Virus record (IMG/VR): IMGVR_UViG_3300047509_000088 | Location: 31,371-95,370 of that record | DNA from: a virus | Length of the DNA stretch: 64,000 bases | Direction: 5' to 3' (one strand) | Shown: positions 397-36,546 of the stretch, in pieces | Position numbering within the stretch: the stretch's first letter is position 1 | Layout of the letters: each line of letters starts with the position of its first letter | The notes under the pieces: model-generated | Databases searched by the model: none | What the model was told of the DNA's origin: nothing | Seen by the model: only the letters and a program-made list of their open reading frames with translations | Position numbers and translations under genes: made by a program

Positions 397-3342
397 CTAA
401 ATCCTATACCCCTGATGCCCTTCCGCAATCCAGATGAGCGTCTTCTTGGCGCGGGTGGCGGCGACATAAAAGACCCGATTTTCGCCGTCTGGATTGTCGT
501 TATATTCCTGGTAGGTTCGGCGGGTCATACTAACTGAGGTGGCGACGTGGTCGGCCTCCTCGCCCTTGGCGCCGTGAATAGTCGAGATCTCCACTCGCGG
601 CTTCTCGGATAGACTAGCCAGACCGAACCGCTTGACAATCCGTTTGAGGTATTTCCGCTCATACGGCTCCATCCGGATTGCCTCAAGGGGATCATTCCAG
701 AGCTGTTCGGTTAGACGAGAAGAGGCGCCGGCCTTCATCAGGTCGGGAAGACCATACAGGTGCGACCACTGCGTCCTGTCCACTTCCCACTGATCGGGAT
801 AGATCTGGCGCATTAGTTGCTTGAGGCGGCCCTGTCGAACCAGCCGACCCGAATTGAGTTCGGCGGCAACCTTGATCGCCAAGCCTCGATCCCGAGTCGG
901 ATCGGGGATTCCCTGGCTGGACGTTCTGTCTTTGAACGGTATACCCCCCTCTACGAGCATCCCCCGGGCGACTTCGGCAAACACCCGATTCCTGACCAGG
1001 AGCAGCCACGAGTCATCCGCCGTCGCCGCGATCCTCTCGGCCAGCCCCATCCCCCCCTCCGGCTTGTCGGCCCAGCCGAACAGACGGTCGACCTCCCCGC
1101 CTTCGTAGTGGGGCTCGAAGCCGCCCGGGGCTCGCTCGGCAACGGGAACTCGATTGATGATCGACAATGCTTCGGCGTGAACGACGGACGGCAGCCGGTA
1201 TGAATGCGAGAGGTACATCTGGTGGCCGGGACGCTCCCAGACCTCAGACGGGATGGCGCCGCTGAAGGCAAAGATGCACTGATTCACATCACCAAAGGCC
1301 ATGAGATAGTCCGCGTCCTCTTTCCACATGTCGACTACCCGCCACTGACACGGCGTCAAGTCCTGGCAGTTCTTTACGAGGATTCCATTGGCGAAGAAGT
1401 TGTGGTTGTCCTCTACGTCGAGGCAATAAACTGACCCATCGAGTTGCGCTGCCTTCGACTGAAGTCGCGGGGCCCCGATGTTTTCCAGCTCAAGTCTGCT
1501 TGGCACTGGTCGCTGCATGTTCGAGGAAGAGGATGACCCAGCGCCTTCCTGGTAGTGCTGAACTGATCGCCACAGATCACGCAGATTCCGGTTATTGTCT
1601 CTAGTTTGGCGGGGTGGCGCAATCGAGATTGTGCCGTCATCAACCTGAATCGTGCTAGCTCGCATTCCCTGGAGTCGCAGATTCGCCACGTTCCGCGATT
1701 GCTGATTTGGCGTCCACAGATATCGCAGAATCGAGGTGGCGGCTCCATTTTGATCGTTACTTCCGGAAGGGTTGGCCTTAGATCGCCTCGAAGCTTGTAG
1801 ATGAGAGAGGGATGAATGTATGGTCGAAATCGCCTGCGCAATTCGTTGACGTAAGCTGAGGGAAAGTAGATCACCGGACCCTTCTTGGTTTCGTGGATGT
1901 GACATCCCAGCCCCATCGATATCAGATGATCCCGGACGAACTTCACCTCTTCGCGCGAACGACTGCTCACTGTTATACACATGCTTCTGTCGCGTGATGA
2001 TCCATCGTCCATGAACCAAACCGCCAAGGCCAGGTTGTCCACCCACGATAGGAGCTGAGGGGTGATAATCTTGGGGCCATTGGGTCGAGCTATTCGATGA
2101 ATCTCGGTGAAGACTGGATGGCTCTTGGTGGAGAAGCTGTAGACAGAGCCGCCGAAAGAGGTGGGGGATGGACCTCTTATGGGGGATGACCACCGAACCA
2201 GCATGTCGTGTTTCCACCGAAGGTATCCGAGTTGTGCTTGCCCCTGAACGAATCGAACTCGTGCGTTCCCCCGTGGACCGGGGCTCAAGCTGATCGAGGC
2301 GTCTCCAAGTAGCGATCCGACCACGATTGATCGCTCCGACGGTGAGAGCTTCTCCGAGGGGTCGTATGTTTTCACTGGTCAATTGTAGCACGCGGTCCAA
2401 GATCTGACACCGCTCCAGTGGAACGTATCCCTTTCCCAGTACGAGAAGAGGATGGTTGCCCGTGGCTGTGAGCGGTCCCGCCTGGTACAGCGAACGTCCG
2501 CGCAACGGATTCATATGCCAGCCAGTAACTCGTTTGGGTTCGATTGAATCGGTGGCGGGGTTGTAACTGAGGACCGATACTGACAGTCGGCGCTCGACGA
2601 TCTCTCGGATAGGCATCTGGCTGCCGTTCGCCAGCGTAACCATCGAATCACCGGGAAGGCACTCGTCAGTGAATATCCATTTGACGGGTGGGCGAAGGCG
2701 TTCGCGGAGGACAATTTCAAGCATGTCCGCGAAATCAAACAGGCCGGAGGATTGCTTCCACTCATGGTACGTATCCGAGAACTTCGCGGCGTCCCTCTCG
2801 CCCCAGGGGGTGTCCGTCGGATTCTTGAGGCGCATCATTCGAACTATCTCAGGGATGGTCTTGACCAGCGCCCGTCTAAGTTCTTCGGCGACGTAGCACC
2901 AGTCCCCGAAGGTGACAATCGATCCCACGGCATACGGATCGTCAACCGACCTTTGATTCAATACGCCCTGGAACTTGTAGCCAGACGACTCGCCGAACTC
3001 CCGGAGGCCGGACATGGTCACAACCTGCTCGGATCTGAGTTGAAGCAATTGAAAGCACGTCGAGTGAATCGTCCTGACCCAGGGCATCTCGTTATCGGTC
3101 AGACCGTATTCGGTTGACAGGCGGCGTCTTAGTTCCTGAGTAGCGTTTCGGGTGAAGGCGTTCACGAGCATTTGGTCGGACGGCAATCCCGCCTTGAGGT
3201 GGGCGTCGAGGATCACACCCAGGCTTCGCGTCTTGCCGCACCCGGGGCTTCCGTAGATCATCACCTCGCGGTCATTGTCGACTTCGCGGTGCAGCTTGAG
3301 ATCTGGAAGCAGCTCAAGCAGGCGGGCGGTCAGGGCGCTCAT
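397..3342 (-). CDS. UvrD/PcrA-like superfamily 1 DNA helicase containing an intein
   Basis: Walker A GSPGCGKT, AFTRNA, RTIHS, DFADML, Walker B FTDE|CQD interrupted by the intein, GDVNQCIFAFSGA, STIHGAKGEEAD, YVAATRAK. Confidence 0.95.
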   Translation of the reverse strand: MSALTARLLELLPDLKLHREVDNDREVMIYGSPGCGKTRSLGVILDAHLKAGLPSDQMLVNAFTRNATQELRRRLSTEYGLTDNEMPWVRTIHSTCFQLLQLRSEQVVTMSGLREFGESSGYKFQGVLNQRSVDDPYAVGSIVTFGDWCYVAEELRRALVKTIPEIVRMMRLKNPTDTPWGERDAAKFSDTYHEWKQSSGLFDFADMLEIVLRERLRPPVKWIFTDECLPGDSMVTLANGSQMPIREIVERRLSVSVLSYNPATDSIEPKRVTGWHMNPLRGRSLYQAGPLTATGNHPLLVLGKGYVPLERCQILDRVLQLTSENIRPLGEALTVGAINRGRIATWRRLDQLEPRSTGERTSSIRSGASTTRIPSVETRHAGSVVIPHKRSIPHLFRRLCLQLLHQEPSSLHRDSSNSSTQWPQDYHPSAPIVGGQPGLGGLVHGRWIITRQKHVYNSEQSFARRGEVRPGSSDIDGAGMSHPRNQEGSGDLLSLSLRQRIAQAISTIHSSLSHLQASRRSKANPSGSNDQNGAATSILRYLWTPNQQSRNVANLRLQGMRASTIQVDDGTISIAPPRQTRDNNRNLRDLWRSVQHYQEGAGSSSSSNMQRPVPSRLELENIGAPRLQSKAAQLDGSVYCLDVEDNHNFFANGILVKNCQDLTPCQWRVVDMWKEDADYLMAFGDVNQCIFAFSGAIPSEVWERPGHQMYLSHSYRLPSVVHAEALSIINRVPVAERAPGGFEPHYEGGEVDRLFGWADKPEGGMGLAERIAATADDSWLLLVRNRVFAEVARGMLVEGGIPFKDRTSSQGIPDPTRDRGLAIKVAAELNSGRLVRQGRLKQLMRQIYPDQWEVDRTQWSHLYGLPDLMKAGASSRLTEQLWNDPLEAIRMEPYERKYLKRIVKRFGLASLSEKPRVEISTIHGAKGEEADHVATSVSMTRRTYQEYNDNPDGENRVFYVAATRAKKTLIWIAEGHQGYRI
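1413..2375 (-). CDS. LAGLIDADG homing endonuclease with C-terminal Cys-rich Zn fingers, in the +1 frame inside the helicase intein
   Basis: IVVGSLLGDAS and LAVWFMDDGS LAGLIDADG-type helices; CDICG..CDSREC and CVICG..CSDQC; GTG start at 2375. Confidence 0.9.
   Translation of the reverse strand: MKTYDPSEKLSPSERSIVVGSLLGDASISLSPGPRGNARVRFVQGQAQLGYLRWKHDMLVRWSSPIRGPSPTSFGGSVYSFSTKSHPVFTEIHRIARPNGPKIITPQLLSWVDNLALAVWFMDDGSSRDRSMCITVSSRSREEVKFVRDHLISMGLGCHIHETKKGPVIYFPSAYVNELRRRFRPYIHPSLIYKLRGDLRPTLPEVTIKMEPPPRFCDICGRQISNRGTWRICDSRECELARFRLMTAQSRLRHPAKLETITGICVICGDQFSTTRKALGHPLPRTCSDQCQADLSWKTSGPRDFSRRQRNSMGQFIAST
2382..2390 (-). promoter_or_regulatory. Extended -10 promoter for a leaderless transcript of the nested endonuclease
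   Basis: TGCTACAAT followed by 6 nt and then the GTG at 2375, the same spacing as other leaderless genes in the window. Confidence 0.65.
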
Positions 3343-3647
3343 CTTCCGTCCAGCACAGCCCGCTCGATCGCCTCCCAGCGTTCTACCTGAGTCGGCAGGT
3401 TCAGCTCATCAAACGATTCATCAGCCTGCCATCTCCGCCACAACATGTGATAGTACGGCATTCGCTCATACGGTTCCAGATCAGACCAACAGTCCTCGCA
3501 CAAAGGAAAGCAACCTCCCCCCTCCCGAGGATACGTGACGTGTCCGTGAACAAACGCCCAGGGCATCCCGCACCTCAAACACTGTCCGTAGCCGTGCGAG
3601 AACCACCGAGCGAAGGGTGCAAGTAATCGGCGGGTCCGGTAGGTCAC
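3339..3647 (-). CDS. Cys-rich hypothetical phage protein
   Basis: CLRCG..CFPLCEDCW; overlapping start/stop with both neighbours. Confidence 0.6.
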   Translation of the reverse strand: MTYRTRRLLAPFARWFSHGYGQCLRCGMPWAFVHGHVTYPREGGGCFPLCEDCWSDLEPYERMPYYHMLWRRWQADESFDELNLPTQVERWEAIERAVLDGR

Positions 3648-3862
3648 CTTCCGCAGTCCATGCAGAGATGCAGATCCCGGAACCTGACGGCGCCCTGGAT
3701 CAGTAGGCCGTGAGCTTGGACCCATTCACGCGGCCAGGTTGGATGGGGGACCGCCTCGATATCGAGCGGCGGTGGCATCCAGGTCGGGCGGTTTCGGAGG
3801 TGGGGGCAGTCCGGCCTCAGATGGGCGGTCTTTGAGGTTCGATTAGCGAGCCAGACGATCAT
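3644..3862 (-). CDS. Small Zn-binding hypothetical protein
   Basis: HLRPDCPHL...LCMDC; ATGA overlap with the upstream gene. Confidence 0.55.
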   Translation of the reverse strand: MIVWLANRTSKTAHLRPDCPHLRNRPTWMPPPLDIEAVPHPTWPREWVQAHGLLIQGAVRFRDLHLCMDCGR

Positions 3863-4117: not shown

Positions 4118-4726
4118 CTAGCTGGAAGATCGCGGCTGGATGCGCTCAACCCAGACAGCCGGCGGCTGGCCGGGTAAGGCGGTCAGTCGGGAGACACCAA
4201 GCAATCTTAATTTAGCCTTGTAGCGTTTCTTCGCTGCTTTGGCGCAGATTGAACACCATCGCTCACCGCTTGTTTTGCGTCGATCGAACGGATGACCTCT
4301 AGGGCAGACAGTTTTTCGAGCGTTGATAGCGGCCGGACCTTCTCCGCGAAGTGTATTCTCTCGTTCCGTGACCGGTTCCCCGCAGCAAGGATTGACACAC
4401 CACGGATTCCGACAGAGATGATCAAGGTCTAACCCAGTAGGGATCGGGCCAATCATTTTCTCGTAGAGGAATCTATGCAGCAGGACTTGTTTACCCTGAG
4501 ACGCAATGACAGCATAACGGTCATCGTTTGATCTCTTACTATTTGAGCGACTCTTACGAAGCCTCCAGCATCCGTTATTGAGAGGTTCGATCCTCGACAT
4601 TGCGCGATCAAAAGCAGAAGCCGATTGAGCCTCGCGTTGAACCCTCCTTCCAAAGGGAAGTTGGTGGCCGTTTACGAATCGTTTGCCCGGGTTCGGAGAT
4701 TCACCACACCCGCATTCACAGCTCAT
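4118..4726 (-). CDS. Free-standing HNH homing endonuclease
   Basis: CECGCG..RFVNGH N-terminus, NGCW, DLDHLCRNPWCVNP, CPRGHPF..CSIC; ATG overlaps the stop of the SLOG gene. Confidence 0.9.
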   Translation of the reverse strand: MSCECGCGESPNPGKRFVNGHQLPFGRRVQREAQSASAFDRAMSRIEPLNNGCWRLRKSRSNSKRSNDDRYAVIASQGKQVLLHRFLYEKMIGPIPTGLDLDHLCRNPWCVNPCCGEPVTERENTLRGEGPAAINARKTVCPRGHPFDRRKTSGERWCSICAKAAKKRYKAKLRLLGVSRLTALPGQPPAVWVERIQPRSSS

Positions 4727-5214
4727 ATTCTTTCTACCCATACTTGGGGCGGAAGGCCAGGTAAGGCAACCACGACTTTGCCGGATAGCTTCATAGCTTT
4801 CCGGATTGTGTCGGCGGTTCCGTTTGACTCGCCGTTCCAAAACGCGACTATCACGTCAGACGCCAGGACGATTACGGTATTCCGCTCAAACAGGGTTCGG
4901 ACATATCGCTCACCCTGGGCGGTGACCTCGATAACGTCTCGGCGGTACGTCTGGGCCTTGAGGCGAGCTTCCCGGTCGACCCCCCGAGCGCCTCCAGATA
5001 TCACATATGCGTCGGGATGAAGCAGTTGTATGAGCTTGCCGACCCGGTCAAGCTCGGGATAGTTCCGCGAACCGACGATTCCCACCCGTCTGGCGTCCTT
5101 CAAAATGTCAATTGAGGTCTTGATCGAAAAACACCCCGCCTCGTCCGCGACCTCGGCGCCGACCTTGTTCATCGCCAGAGCGGGGTTGACCAATCCGGTA
5201 TTGACGTCGGTCAT
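4723..5214 (-). CDS. SLOG-superfamily (YspA/DprA-like) nucleotide-binding protein
   Basis: GIVGSRNY, VISGGARGVD, RN..IV..SD.IVAFWNGESNGT. Confidence 0.85.
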   Translation of the reverse strand: MTDVNTGLVNPALAMNKVGAEVADEAGCFSIKTSIDILKDARRVGIVGSRNYPELDRVGKLIQLLHPDAYVISGGARGVDREARLKAQTYRRDVIEVTAQGERYVRTLFERNTVIVLASDVIVAFWNGESNGTADTIRKAMKLSGKVVVALPGLPPQVWVERI

Positions 5215-31204: not shown

Positions 31205-31848
31205 CCAGGCCGCCGGCCAGGTCGGACAGGTTGGATCGATATGACGTCATCTGACCGATGATCATCCGGAGACTGGTGGTATGACTCGGCGAAGGCAATT
31301 AAGTCGTTTGGGATATTGAACATGGGAACGTCAAACCGCTGGCCGATTGACTGTATATCCGTATCCAGCCGCCGCCAGATCGCGACGTTCTCGGATCGGG
31401 AGGACGTAAAGAACACACGACCGGTCAGGTGGACATCCGGGTTTGGAAAGTGACGAACCACGATCTCTTTGACTTCAATTCCCGCCAGAAGGGCGATCAC
31501 CTGAGCGTATTCGCATCTAAAGCCATTCGCGTGTTCGATTATCCGACCCCAAGCCTGGACCGCGCCGAAGATGAAGAGGTGGCGGGGCTGGACGTAATCA
31601 CGAACCTCGCGTAAGGATGACCTTATCCACAATCCGCAATCGCACAGGGGAGCAGGCGCGGAGTGATACTGTTCGTGACTGGCGCGATTGATGCCCGGCT
31701 TCCAGGGTCCGTCGCCGCGAACGATCGACCAGAGGTCAGGGGAAGCGGTCGACCAGAGGTCAGGGGAAGCGGGGGACGGTGGCAACGTATAGCCCAGGAG
31801 ATGTGTCAATCGCCAGTCGTACGGCGACCAGGCGCGGTATCCGATCAT
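31201..31848 (-). CDS. GYRAW-family paralog 3
   Basis: Same motifs (CDCGLW, AWGRIIEH); internal 21-bp duplication (ASPDLWS x2). Confidence 0.8.
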   Translation of the reverse strand: MIGYRAWSPYDWRLTHLLGYTLPPSPASPDLWSTASPDLWSIVRGDGPWKPGINRASHEQYHSAPAPLCDCGLWIRSSLREVRDYVQPRHLFIFGAVQAWGRIIEHANGFRCEYAQVIALLAGIEVKEIVVRHFPNPDVHLTGRVFFTSSRSENVAIWRRLDTDIQSIGQRFDVPMFNIPNDLIAFAESYHQSPDDHRSDDVISIQPVRPGRRPG

Positions 31849-33881: not shown

Positions 33882-34124
33882 GTGGAGTTCCCAACTTCGT
33901 TAGACGTCGCGCGCCAACTAGAGTGTACGCGAGCCCATTGCCCCTGTCATCGGACTGCTCAGACAGGAACGGGGGTGACGCATTGCCCCTCCCACACCGA
34001 CGAACATGCGAGCCTATCAATAAGCCAGAGGGGCGACATGTGCTTGTGGAACGACCACGGTGGTTGTGACAAGTACGAGGTCCGGGATGCGCTGATCCGG
34101 GAAGGGATCTGGCCGCGTGTCTGA
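33882..34124 (+). CDS. Stand-alone primase zinc-binding domain
   Basis: HCPSHTDEHASLSI..LWNDHGGC..EVRDAL, a CHC2-like primase N-terminal pattern. Confidence 0.75.
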   Translation: MEFPTSLDVARQLECTRAHCPCHRTAQTGTGVTHCPSHTDEHASLSISQRGDMCLWNDHGGCDKYEVRDALIREGIWPRV

Positions 34125-36546
34125 CAATCAACCGGCCGAGAGGCTGTTTCGCCAGCTCGTGAACAACAAGTCCGAGTTGGAGTTGTTGGAGTGGGACGAC
34201 TGCGGGTTTGATTCGCTCGTCTGTGATCCGCCGGCCGGGATCGCGTTCATGAATCGGAGCTGGGATAGCGACAAGGGCGGAAGAGATCTCTGGATTGACG
34301 AGATGACCGTCATATTTGTCGAATGCTTTCGCGTCCTGAAGCCAGGTAGTCATGGTCTCATCTGGGCGATCCCGAGGACGAGCCACTGGACCGCCACGGC
34401 GCTTGAGGATGCCGGGTTTGAGGTAAGAGACGTTATTGACCATTTGTTCGGCTGTCTGTCGGACGATATCACCGTCCTAACTCGACGTGGCTGGCTGCAT
34501 CATACCGAACTAACGTCAACCGATGAGGTTCTTCAGTCATCGGGCGATATCCTGACCTGGGCTCGACCTGAGATGGTTCACCGCTACCCGTACAGGGGTC
34601 CGATGATCAATCTCAGGAATCGCCACACCGACCAACTACTGACACCCAACCACCGTGTCTATGCTAATGTGCGGCGTTCCTCGCAATACACTTTCATCGA
34701 AAAGATGGTGGTCGAGGCGAGAGAGCTACGGCCGTCATGGGTCGTAGACCTACCGATGGCCGGCTGTCTGAATGACGGCTGGGATGGCCCCGATCCGAAG
34801 CGGGCCTATCTGGTCGGTTGGTGGTTGACCGACGCTTGGCCGCACAAAGACGGCAAGGCAGCGATGTTCTCGCAGTCTAAGCCAAAGATGCTGGCCAAGC
34901 TACGGACGGCGCTGGCTCCGTACCAACCCTCCGAGTACGTCAGGCGCGGAAAGCTGCCACAGCATTCAGATGAACATACCTTCTATGTGACTGGACCACT
35001 TGCCGACTACTTATTGGCAACATACCCCGACCGGAAGCTCGATTGGTCGGTTCTCGGGTGGTCGGTTCCGGCCCGGCATGCGCTGCTTGAGGGATTGCTG
35101 GACGGAGACGGATCTCGCCGCGAAAGTCAACACTCGGAAGCGTTCTGGTCGAAGGATCAGGAACGACGAGATATCGTGATGGCGCTGTGTGTCTCACTGA
35201 ACATCCGAGCATACGATGATCCAAAGAAGTGGGTCGTCAATCTCAATCGAACCCACAATTCAACTCAGCTCCAGAAGCATCATCGCGATGCAGCGCCACC
35301 AAGGGAATACGATGGGATCGTATGGTGCCTGACGGTACCAAGCGGGGCATTTGTCGTCAGGCGGAATGGGCGGCCGTTCATCACCGGGAACTCGGGTTTT
35401 CCGAAGGGATTGAACATCTCCAAACAGATAGACAAGATGGCCGGCGCCAAGCGGGAGGTGATTGGCCAGGGGCCAGATCACGCCAAGAGGACGTCGGCGG
35501 CCGGTCGCGGCGGAACGGTCTCTCGGGAAGGGGGGGACGCTCCACTCGGACAAATATTAACCGCTCCCGCCACACCCGAAGCCGTGAGGTGGGACGGCTG
35601 GTCAACCGCTCTCAAGCCGGCACACGAGCACTGGATCTTGGTAAGGAAGCCGCTTGAGAAGGGATTGACCGTAGCTCAAAATGTCCTCAAGTATGGGACG
35701 GGCGGGATCAATATAGACGGGTGTCGAATAGAGGGGGCGGTGCCATCCACGATCCAGGAACAATCGTCTCGGCAAGGCGAGGTCTATGGTACCGACCAGA
35801 GGAATCAAAGAGCGTTTGTCGGTAGTCCGGCTGGGCGCTGGCCCGCCAATTTGATCCTCTCGCATAATCCGGATTGCAAACTGGTCGGGACGAAGAGGGT
35901 CAAGGGCGACTTCGGAACCAGGGGAAGCGATCAGGGAAATGAGATGTACGGGCAGGGTCGGGGGATGAACCGGCCGGCGACCGGTCAGACGGTCGGGTAC
36001 GCTGACCCGGATGGCCTCGAAGAGGTCGAGGCGTGGGAGTGTGCAGAGGGCTGTCCGGTAGCAGAGCTGGATCGGCAGTCTGGTCAAACTGGAAGTAGTG
36101 AGCGCAGAGTCGCCGGACCGGGACAACAGCCGTTCAAGGTTGATAGAGGCTGGAATCAACACTCCATGACCCGAAAGGGTCAAACCGCACCCGAAAGCTA
36201 TGGCGATACAGGTGGCGCAAGTCGCTTCTTCAAGACGTTCGACGGTCGATTAGATCCAGGGTTCGCATATATACCGAAAGCTTCCACCCGCGAGCGATCC
36301 GCCGGCTTGCCAGAGGGTTCGAGATCGAGCCATCCGACTGTTAAGCCGATTGACCTCATGCGCTATCTGGTCAGACTGGTCACGCCGCCGGGTGGTGTGG
36401 TGCTCGATCCCTTTGCCGGCTCCGGGACAACCTGTATAGCGGCCGTCCTGGAGGGGATGGGGTTCATGGGGATTGAGAAGGACCCGGAGTCATACCAGAT
36501 AGCGGCTGACCGGATAAGACATTGGCTAAACCGGATGGACGGCTAG
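34117..36546 (+). CDS. Beta-class N6A/N4C DNA methyltransferase with intein
   Basis: CDPPAG (motif IV variant), RVLKPG, HPTVKP, VLDPFAGSGTT, GIE. Confidence 0.93.
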   Translation: MSDNQPAERLFRQLVNNKSELELLEWDDCGFDSLVCDPPAGIAFMNRSWDSDKGGRDLWIDEMTVIFVECFRVLKPGSHGLIWAIPRTSHWTATALEDAGFEVRDVIDHLFGCLSDDITVLTRRGWLHHTELTSTDEVLQSSGDILTWARPEMVHRYPYRGPMINLRNRHTDQLLTPNHRVYANVRRSSQYTFIEKMVVEARELRPSWVVDLPMAGCLNDGWDGPDPKRAYLVGWWLTDAWPHKDGKAAMFSQSKPKMLAKLRTALAPYQPSEYVRRGKLPQHSDEHTFYVTGPLADYLLATYPDRKLDWSVLGWSVPARHALLEGLLDGDGSRRESQHSEAFWSKDQERRDIVMALCVSLNIRAYDDPKKWVVNLNRTHNSTQLQKHHRDAAPPREYDGIVWCLTVPSGAFVVRRNGRPFITGNSGFPKGLNISKQIDKMAGAKREVIGQGPDHAKRTSAAGRGGTVSREGGDAPLGQILTAPATPEAVRWDGWSTALKPAHEHWILVRKPLEKGLTVAQNVLKYGTGGINIDGCRIEGAVPSTIQEQSSRQGEVYGTDQRNQRAFVGSPAGRWPANLILSHNPDCKLVGTKRVKGDFGTRGSDQGNEMYGQGRGMNRPATGQTVGYADPDGLEEVEAWECAEGCPVAELDRQSGQTGSSERRVAGPGQQPFKVDRGWNQHSMTRKGQTAPESYGDTGGASRFFKTFDGRLDPGFAYIPKASTRERSAGLPEGSRSSHPTVKPIDLMRYLVRLVTPPGGVVLDPFAGSGTTCIAAVLEGMGFMGIEKDPESYQIAADRIRHWLNRMDG
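34453..35391 (+). mobile_element. Intein (313 aa) with in-frame LAGLIDADG domain
   Basis: FG|CLSDD..LTPNH..AYLVGWWLTD..LLEGLLDGDGS..VWCLTVPSGAFVVRRNGRPFITGN|SGFPK. Confidence 0.93.

Follow-up and report, generated by a model that had tools for sequence, protein, structure and literature searches.

We analysed a 64,000-nucleotide (nt) stretch of viral DNA (hereafter the window), positions 31,371 to 95,370 of record IMGVR_UViG_3300047509_000088, which is a soil-metagenome contig of 95 kb catalogued as viral in IMG/VR. Near one end of the window lies a gene for a UvrD-like helicase that is interrupted by an intein, and the DNA of the intein carries, in another frame of the same strand, an open reading frame (ORF) for a LAGLIDADG homing endonuclease (HEN). 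A first-pass annotation of the bare sequence had singled out this arrangement as an intein with an overprinted endonuclease. The helicase ORF of 981 amino acids (aa) matches the Pfam families UvrD-helicase (E 7e-22) and UvrD_C (E 6e-11), its start codon shares letters, within an ATGA, with the stop codon of the ORF upstream (3339-3725), and the intein sits in its Walker-B motif, at FTDE|CQDLTP (the DE|CQD site). The parts of the host gene and of its intein are as follows.

397-3342, minus strand: precursor ORF of the UvrD-like superfamily 1 (SF1) helicase, 981 aa, stop codon at 397-399
2662-3342, minus strand: N-extein, 227 aa, ending in the Walker-B residues ...FTDE, as delimited by alignment with the intein-less alleles P0002-P0004
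1369-2661, minus strand: intein, 431 codons, from Cys1 to LVKN, followed by Cys+1 at 1366-1368
400-1368, minus strand: C-extein, 323 aa, first residues CQDLTP
2374-2661, minus strand: N-terminal splicing domain, intein residues 1-96, with block A at Cys1 and block B at T67..H70
1438-2373, minus strand: intein-frame linker, residues 97-408 (312 aa), stop-free, Ser/Arg-rich and non-conserved
1369-1437, minus strand: C-terminal splicing region, residues 409-431, with blocks F and G (VYCLDVEDNHNFFANGILVKN)

Three close helicases (P0002-P0004, 548-553 aa, 69-80% identical overall) lack exactly residues 228-658, and the block is thus a precise in-frame insertion without a counterpart in orthologous alleles. 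The nearest helicase relatives as a group are without it: P0002 (85% identity over the N-extein), P0003 (81%) and P0004-P0008. The intein-less P0003 retains DE|CQD, and the junction in alleles of its type reads ...ACTGACGAG|TGCCAGGAC....

By its sequence features the insert is a class-1 intein with one oddity, a penultimate Lys. Cys1, the TxxH of block B, block F, the terminal Asn and Cys+1 are all present, and residues C1, T67, H70, H420, N421, F422, F423 and N431 are invariant in seven related inteins. AlphaFold2 placed residues 1-96 in beta strands with a predicted local distance difference test score (pLDDT) of 73-92 and gave residues 409-431 a pLDDT of 79-90. The linker between them (residues 97-408) was predicted with a pLDDT below 50 and without secondary structure, using an alignment of seven inteins, and it is rich in Ser (13.8%) and Arg (11.5%) compared with the exteins (6.0% and 8.9%). 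In the intein frame, the profile search returned only Intein_splicing (PF14890, E 3.3e-7), whose match is split over residues 8-431 by the linker. Together these results show that only the HINT parts, the N-terminal ~96 and the C-terminal 23 residues, are conserved and, in the model, confidently folded. The 312-residue linker is shown, as far as prediction goes, to be a disordered 'shadow' of the endonuclease gene that is kept only free of stops.

The gene that casts this shadow begins at a GTG directly behind the N-terminal splicing domain and ends at a TAG inside block F. Its offset of 286 nt from the start of the intein puts it in the +1 frame. Its features are these.

1413-2375, minus strand: HEN ORF, 320 aa, from the GTG at 2375 to the TAG at 1413-1415 (within block F), PF03161
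2295-2330, minus strand: LAGLIDADG motif 1, HEN residues 16-27 (SIVVGSLLGDAS), with Asp25, aligning with LILGDA of I-SceI
1998-2033, minus strand: LAGLIDADG motif 2, HEN residues 115-126 (LALAVWFMDDGS), with Asp123 and Asp124, aligning with WFMDDG of I-SceI
1662-1727, minus strand: first zinc-ribbon-like tail, CxxC...CxxxxC (C217, C220, C233, C238), read from the sequence
1503-1583, minus strand: second zinc-ribbon-like tail, CxxC...CxxxC (C265, C268, C287, C291)

The translated ORF matched the LAGLIDADG_2 profile (PF03161) over positions 1-165 of 168, with an E value of 3.2e-34 and 118.7 bits against a cut-off of 25. A profile built from the HEN family found I-WcaI and I-SceI in the Protein Data Bank (PDB) (E ~1e-22). 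AlphaFold predicted the core of the enzyme with a pLDDT of about 90, and Foldseek matched the model best to I-WcaI (6x1j, E 1.5e-15, target-normalised template-modelling score 0.74) and then to I-SceI (1r7m, E 1.7e-13); the predicted model has the monomeric, pseudo-dimeric alpha-beta-beta-alpha-beta-beta-alpha fold. Both LAGLIDADG helices end in the catalytic acidic residues, and LLGD25A and FMD123D124G correspond to the motifs of I-SceI and I-WcaI. G24 and D25 of motif 1 and A118-G125 of motif 2 are invariant in the clade. In the first tail there is a weak match to DUF2256 (E 0.025, under the cut-off). In the second, C265 and C268 are invariant in six relatives, and the AlphaFold2 model has a beta hairpin and a helix (pLDDT 60-80). 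Collectively, these matches show that the +1 ORF encodes an intact two-motif LAGLIDADG enzyme of the I-SceI/I-WcaI type with two C-terminal zinc-ribbon-like tails. The first-pass annotation had described such an enzyme, with zinc-finger tails, from the letters alone, and the profile search with the HEN frame agreed with it.

We next consider how two frames stay open over the same DNA. Over the 1293 nt of the intein there are no stops in the intein frame, 19 in the third frame and 16 in each of the reverse frames; the HEN frame has four, every one of them outside the HEN ORF. The locus thus has a same-strand, out-of-frame HEN ORF between blocks B and F together with an open intein frame. We permuted synonymous codons within the HEN gene, keeping its protein and codon usage, and counted stops in the intein frame. 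The shuffled genes had a mean of 10.7 such stops and none of 20,000 reached the observed zero. Since a stop in the intein frame requires a HEN codon that ends in T before AA, AG or GA, the mechanism of the purge is visible in the codon endings: none of the 66 HEN codons before AA, AG or GA ends in T, compared with 51 of 253 elsewhere. The same was found in five complete relatives, which had no intein-frame stops against shuffle means of 9-23 (0 of 5000 shuffles stop-free in each). Over the six loci, the window included, 0 of 428 such critical codons end in T, a clean signature of selection on a frame that is merely kept open. The stop-free intein frame is selected and not a product of chance. 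The earlier proposals that all 431 codons are open through a Ser/Arg-rich middle, that some 320 codons open in both frames are unlikely without selection, and that stops were purged from the intein frame were all upheld.

Comparison between loci showed which of the two frames is constrained. Amino acid identity was 25-47% for the HEN and 12-25% for the reading of the intein frame, and nucleotide differences were highest at position 3 of the HEN codons (0.64-0.73, against 0.31-0.63 at positions 1 and 2). These values show the HEN frame to be the one under purifying selection and the intein frame to be relaxed. The locus thus shows two overlapping coding frames, of which one is conserved as protein and the other merely kept open. 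With a separate, conserved HEN ORF that has its own start, and a linker that is non-conserved and predicted to be disordered, the description of the locus as a dual-coding selfish element stands.

Scans with the HEN identified nine further loci in which it lies at +1 of a long host ORF. Six are on viral contigs (L002-L006 and L027, the last truncated), one is on a contig of a Nostoc metagenome-assembled genome (MAG) (L082) and two are on metagenome contigs (L183 and L184). The hosts of L002, L003, L004, L027, L082, L183 and L184 read as UvrD-like helicases, with Pfam confirmation for L003, and these helicase-type relatives are interrupted at DE|CQD wherever the junction is present. The host of L006 matches the Pfam terminase large subunit, and that of L005 is terminase-like by sequence alone, with no Pfam match. 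In the relatives checked, the HEN starts with ATG or GTG directly after the N-terminal splicing domain and always stops at a TAG within block F. Because the nearest helicases are intein-less and the intein and HEN occur as a unit in both helicases and a terminase-type ATPase, we regard the element as mobile and sporadic. Of the two inteins in the terminase gene of L006 (2439-5982), the one encountered first is ordinary, with an in-frame middle (...DIIVHN|CSRRSGKS), and the one further on has the +1 overprinted HEN.

We conclude, with a probability of roughly 85%, that the locus is a mobile intein at the DE|CQD site of a phage UvrD-like helicase whose HEN has a gene of its own, overprinted in the +1 frame. 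Under this model, the precursor would be translated through the linker, the HINT halves would associate, and the intein would be spliced out to leave a 550-aa helicase. The HEN would be produced independently from its own GTG, either from a leaderless transcript that starts internally or by ribosomes that initiate inside the operon mRNA. It would then cut intein-less helicase alleles of co-infecting phages in the region GAY-GAR|TGY-CAR-GAY, and repair of the cut empty site would copy the intein and the HEN together.

A number of observations weigh against this interpretation. Splicing, the HEN protein and cleavage are all things that we infer from sequence and models. The block G penultimate His is replaced by Lys in the window (LVKN|C), so the efficiency of splicing is only assumed; the relatives have HN in five cases and SN in one. 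Some natural inteins splice without a penultimate His. The Intein_splicing match, at 30.7 bits, is below the gathering cut-off of 35.8. The HENs of all relatives are at least 53% diverged and saturated for a formal ratio of nonsynonymous to synonymous substitution rates (dN/dS). The comparison of homologous inteins that the first-pass annotation had proposed came out as far as open frames in both readings are concerned, with constraint seen in identities and position-3 differences. Further points concern expression. We found no shared -10 element or Shine-Dalgarno sequence in the 70 nt upstream of the HEN start in five relatives, and the same absence in the 12 nt upstream in L082 and L183. Predicted RNA accessibility at the HEN start, ranked against control positions at eight loci, was inconsistent (ranks 2/27 to 23/27).

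In the window itself, one candidate signal precedes the HEN.

2382-2410, minus strand: putative promoter-like site, GTGTCA and TG-n-TACAAT with a 17-nt spacer, its end 6 nt ahead of the GTG

The extended -10 reported earlier is therefore present six nt before the start codon. The role of leaderless promoter given to it was not supported: the site matches the sigma-70-like consensus at 9 of 12 positions, chance alone predicts 0.9 such sites in 2.4 kb against the two present, and it is not conserved in relatives. It had also been said to match the leaderless spacing used elsewhere in this phage. In a crude survey of the window for TANNNT 4-10 nt before starts, 6 of 118 first starts had the motif, compared with 2.6% of internal starts, which is no clear pattern and too rough a test to support the claim.

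The lack of expression signals bears on the alternative that survives best, in which the HEN ORF is a silent or decaying relic and a non-mobile mini-intein with a long linker persists. The lost penultimate His fits such a relic as well, and the homing-cycle model predicts decay of the endonuclease following fixation. A relic does not, however, explain why the HEN ORF is full length, why neither catalytic Asp motif nor any clade-invariant residue has been lost, or why its structure model is confident, and the intein-less state of the nearest helicases points to recent arrival over long residence. We therefore consider a relic improbable.

A second alternative is programmed ribosomal frameshifting, in which ribosomes would shift by +1 after the N-terminal splicing domain and back before block F, to make an intein-HEN fusion. 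The borders of the HEN match those of the splicing domains, as this would require, and we saw no ribosome-binding site ahead of the HEN. But in the window, L002 and L003 only 3-6 nt separate the HEN start from a preceding stop in its own frame, which leaves a shift site no room, the start codon is kept at the same position in every relative checked, and there is no conserved slippery motif. Moreover, ribosomes that left the intein frame would give no reason for its stops to be purged. Frameshifting is accordingly quite unlikely, to a greater degree than a relic.

Slightly less probable again is an insert without splicing that the helicase bears as a loop on its surface, which is what was proposed for the ShiLan hidden-HNH insertion in phage methylases. 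Out-of-frame endonuclease insertions without splicing domains do exist (PMC11855218). Here, however, the insert has the complete and conserved set of class-1 splicing residues, its HINT parts are modelled with confidence, and the Walker-B/DExx motif is an unlikely place for a 431-aa loop to be tolerated. Finally, an assembly or sequencing artefact, in which two compensating indels mask an ordinary in-frame LAGLIDADG intein, would account for HEN borders that coincide with those of the splicing domains, where a canonical in-frame domain would sit, but cannot account for a 963-nt stop-free intein frame in which about 11 stops are expected, nor for the HEN-frame stop 6 nt before the GTG, and with the same arrangement at nine other loci from other samples, an identical independent assembly of the probable source run, and low-depth contigs from a second soil study that are identical over 1367-1587 and 2187-2422 (both frame junctions) without an indel, we regard it as ruled out along with the indels that the first-pass annotation had allowed for.

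The reading that we prefer, a mobile intein with a separately encoded and overprinted HEN, has published precedents. An out-of-frame LAGLIDADG HEN was described in the cyanobacterial dnaX intein (Gorbalenya 1998, NAR 26:1741, PMC147447, as represented in the preprints that cite it), which is also treated by Phillips, DeSimone & Gogarten (bioRxiv 10.64898/2026.09.14.751524). As here, the HEN of that intein is overprinted, on the same strand, on the stretch that separates the two splicing domains, disorder is predicted for the middle of the intein frame, and the HEN frame is under purifying selection (Phillips et al.). In a cyanobacterial sample of 201 genomes, 55 matched the HEN family. At the dnaX loci that we examined (L163-L173) the HEN belongs to PF03161 (profile E values down to 1e-32) and reads in the +2 frame relative to DnaX on the same strand; the intein around it, like that of the window, is inserted at a Walker-B DE|C site, and the N-terminal splicing domains of the two are similar. 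The two systems differ in offset (+2 there, +1 here) and in clade, as the dnaX HENs form a group of their own (Shimodaira-Hasegawa-like approximate likelihood ratio test, SH-aLRT, 100) that leaves out the eight closest +1 HENs. They also differ in having N-terminal CxCGCG repeats rather than C-terminal CxxC tails, and in a cellular clamp-loader host rather than a phage helicase or terminase. On the Synechocystis/cyanobacterial dnaX HEN, two preprints of one group disagree, as it is antisense in the one and same-strand +2 in the other; L163-L173 are same-strand +2.

Non-canonical inteins of actinophages carry antisense LAGLIDADG, antisense VSR-like and frame-3 endonuclease VII-like HENs in genes for DNA polymerase, minor capsid protein, terminase and thymidylate synthase (Gosselin, Arsenault & Gogarten, bioRxiv 10.1101/2025.01.02.630785). 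They share with the window a HEN outside the intein frame, an unstructured in-frame middle, evidence of ongoing transfer, and jumps among genes with a common nucleotide-binding motif. In contrast, the survey of Gosselin et al. has neither a same-strand LAGLIDADG HEN nor a helicase host. The hidden HNH endonuclease of the ShiLan insertion in phage DNA methylases (Arsenault, Gosselin & Gogarten 2025, PMC11855218) likewise starts out of frame at a GTG, within an insertion whose host frame stays stop-free, but it is an HNH enzyme without splicing domains, whereas a complete HINT and a LAGLIDADG enzyme are present here. Fractured genes (Dassa et al. 2009, PMC2677866) have a separate endonuclease ORF between the N- and C-intein whose end overlaps C-intein coding. 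In these, the host gene is split and trans-spliced, whereas the intein frame of the window runs through the HEN unbroken. I-SceI and I-WcaI (PDB 1r7m and 6x1j) resemble the HEN in fold and in both catalytic-Asp motifs; they are about 24% identical to it, intron-encoded, and without zinc-ribbon tails.

The out-of-frame design of an intein HEN is thus already published and no new principle, and the novelty implied by the first-pass annotation was overstated. What sets the element apart is a distinct clade with a +1 offset, phage hosts and putative C-terminal zinc-ribbon tails. This clade is well supported and, with ten loci or more among the helicase and terminase genes of phages, enlarges the short list of inteins with a separate overprinted HEN gene. 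The locus also matters for annotation: in the output of gene callers it will be a helicase of 981 aa whose middle looks of 'low complexity', and the HEN nested there may be overlooked or misread.

To place the HEN, we assembled 156 loci of its family, of which 114 are free-standing (many of them in Patescibacteria), 35 lie in frame in canonical inteins and 7 are overprinted. RecA inteins of actinobacteria belong to the in-frame group, as do phage ATPase inteins at DE|C sites. Among them, L094, L118 and L129 (MAGs of Nocardioidaceae, Jatrophihabitans and Nocardioides) are RecA inteins with an in-frame HEN of the AVWFMDDG type (PF03161-like), and their N-terminal splicing domain resembles that of the window (...VLSYD...). 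The I-SceI-like family hence occurs in four states (free-standing, in frame, +1 and +2) around inteins at Walker-B sites and offers material on how inteins and HENs unite.

The clade of the six closest +1 HENs had an SH-aLRT of 95-99 in the first two tree builds, and that of eight, with L183 and L184 added, had 88. With seven +1 HENs in the data set, an approximately unbiased (AU) test was compatible with their forming one clade (p 0.746). Which sequences lay next to the +1 clade differed among three quick trees: in-frame intein HENs, a long-branched free-standing HEN, or the non-intein locus L185 together with an intein-associated group. L185 (1-756), which has the same zinc tail and whose contig starts inside the gene, was the sister at a support of 99 in one build. 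This closest non-intein relative of the overprinted HENs lies on a metagenome contig of 66% GC, with a transposase-like ORF directly after the HEN. The first-pass annotation had proposed that a free-standing endonuclease invaded a mini-intein out of frame; this route did not find support, as the family is free-standing, in frame and overprinted, and the deep nodes shift between tree builds. We consider it doubtful that the +1 clade marks a second independent origin of overprinting beside the +2 dnaX inteins, within one lineage of I-SceI-like HENs and Walker-B-site inteins, and that the HEN in this phage is driven by a leaderless promoter. If this were true, overprinting would be a solution at which evolution arrives repeatedly and which lasts, not a single accident, and homing would be timed independently of the helicase operon.

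We also searched for relatives of the host gene. Megablast of the region against isolated phages gave no match, and tblastn of the C-extein against isolated phages returned only helicases of at most 30% identity, from phages of Acinetobacter, Dinoroseobacter, Pelagibacter and others. With matches this distant, and in such diverse phages, the host cannot be named. Scanning viral contigs with the N-extein yielded no relatives. The helicase family is an intein hot spot: P0009 and P0010 carry different inteins, whose two insertion sites (DDDQ|C...HN|S and STIH|C...HN|SVKG) are additional to DE|CQD, and L027 (1-2578) holds the overprinted intein plus one at another of the hot-spot sites.

Directly downstream of the helicase, at 3-467 of the window on the minus strand, is an ORF for a MazG-like (PRA-PH) pyrophosphohydrolase. 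Two genes upstream, a 240-aa ORF at 4118-4840 (minus strand) has an HNH_3 domain (E 2.4e-7) and is probably a free-standing homing endonuclease. On the plus strand at 34117-36546, an 809-aa N6/N4 DNA methylase ORF contains an in-frame LAGLIDADG_3 match (E 4.4e-5), in agreement with the in-frame intein endonuclease noted earlier in this methyltransferase (MTase), and judging by this domain it is the carrier of a second, canonical intein of the phage. The HNH_3 ORF, the MTase intein and the helicase intein bring the selfish nuclease elements in this phage to at least three.

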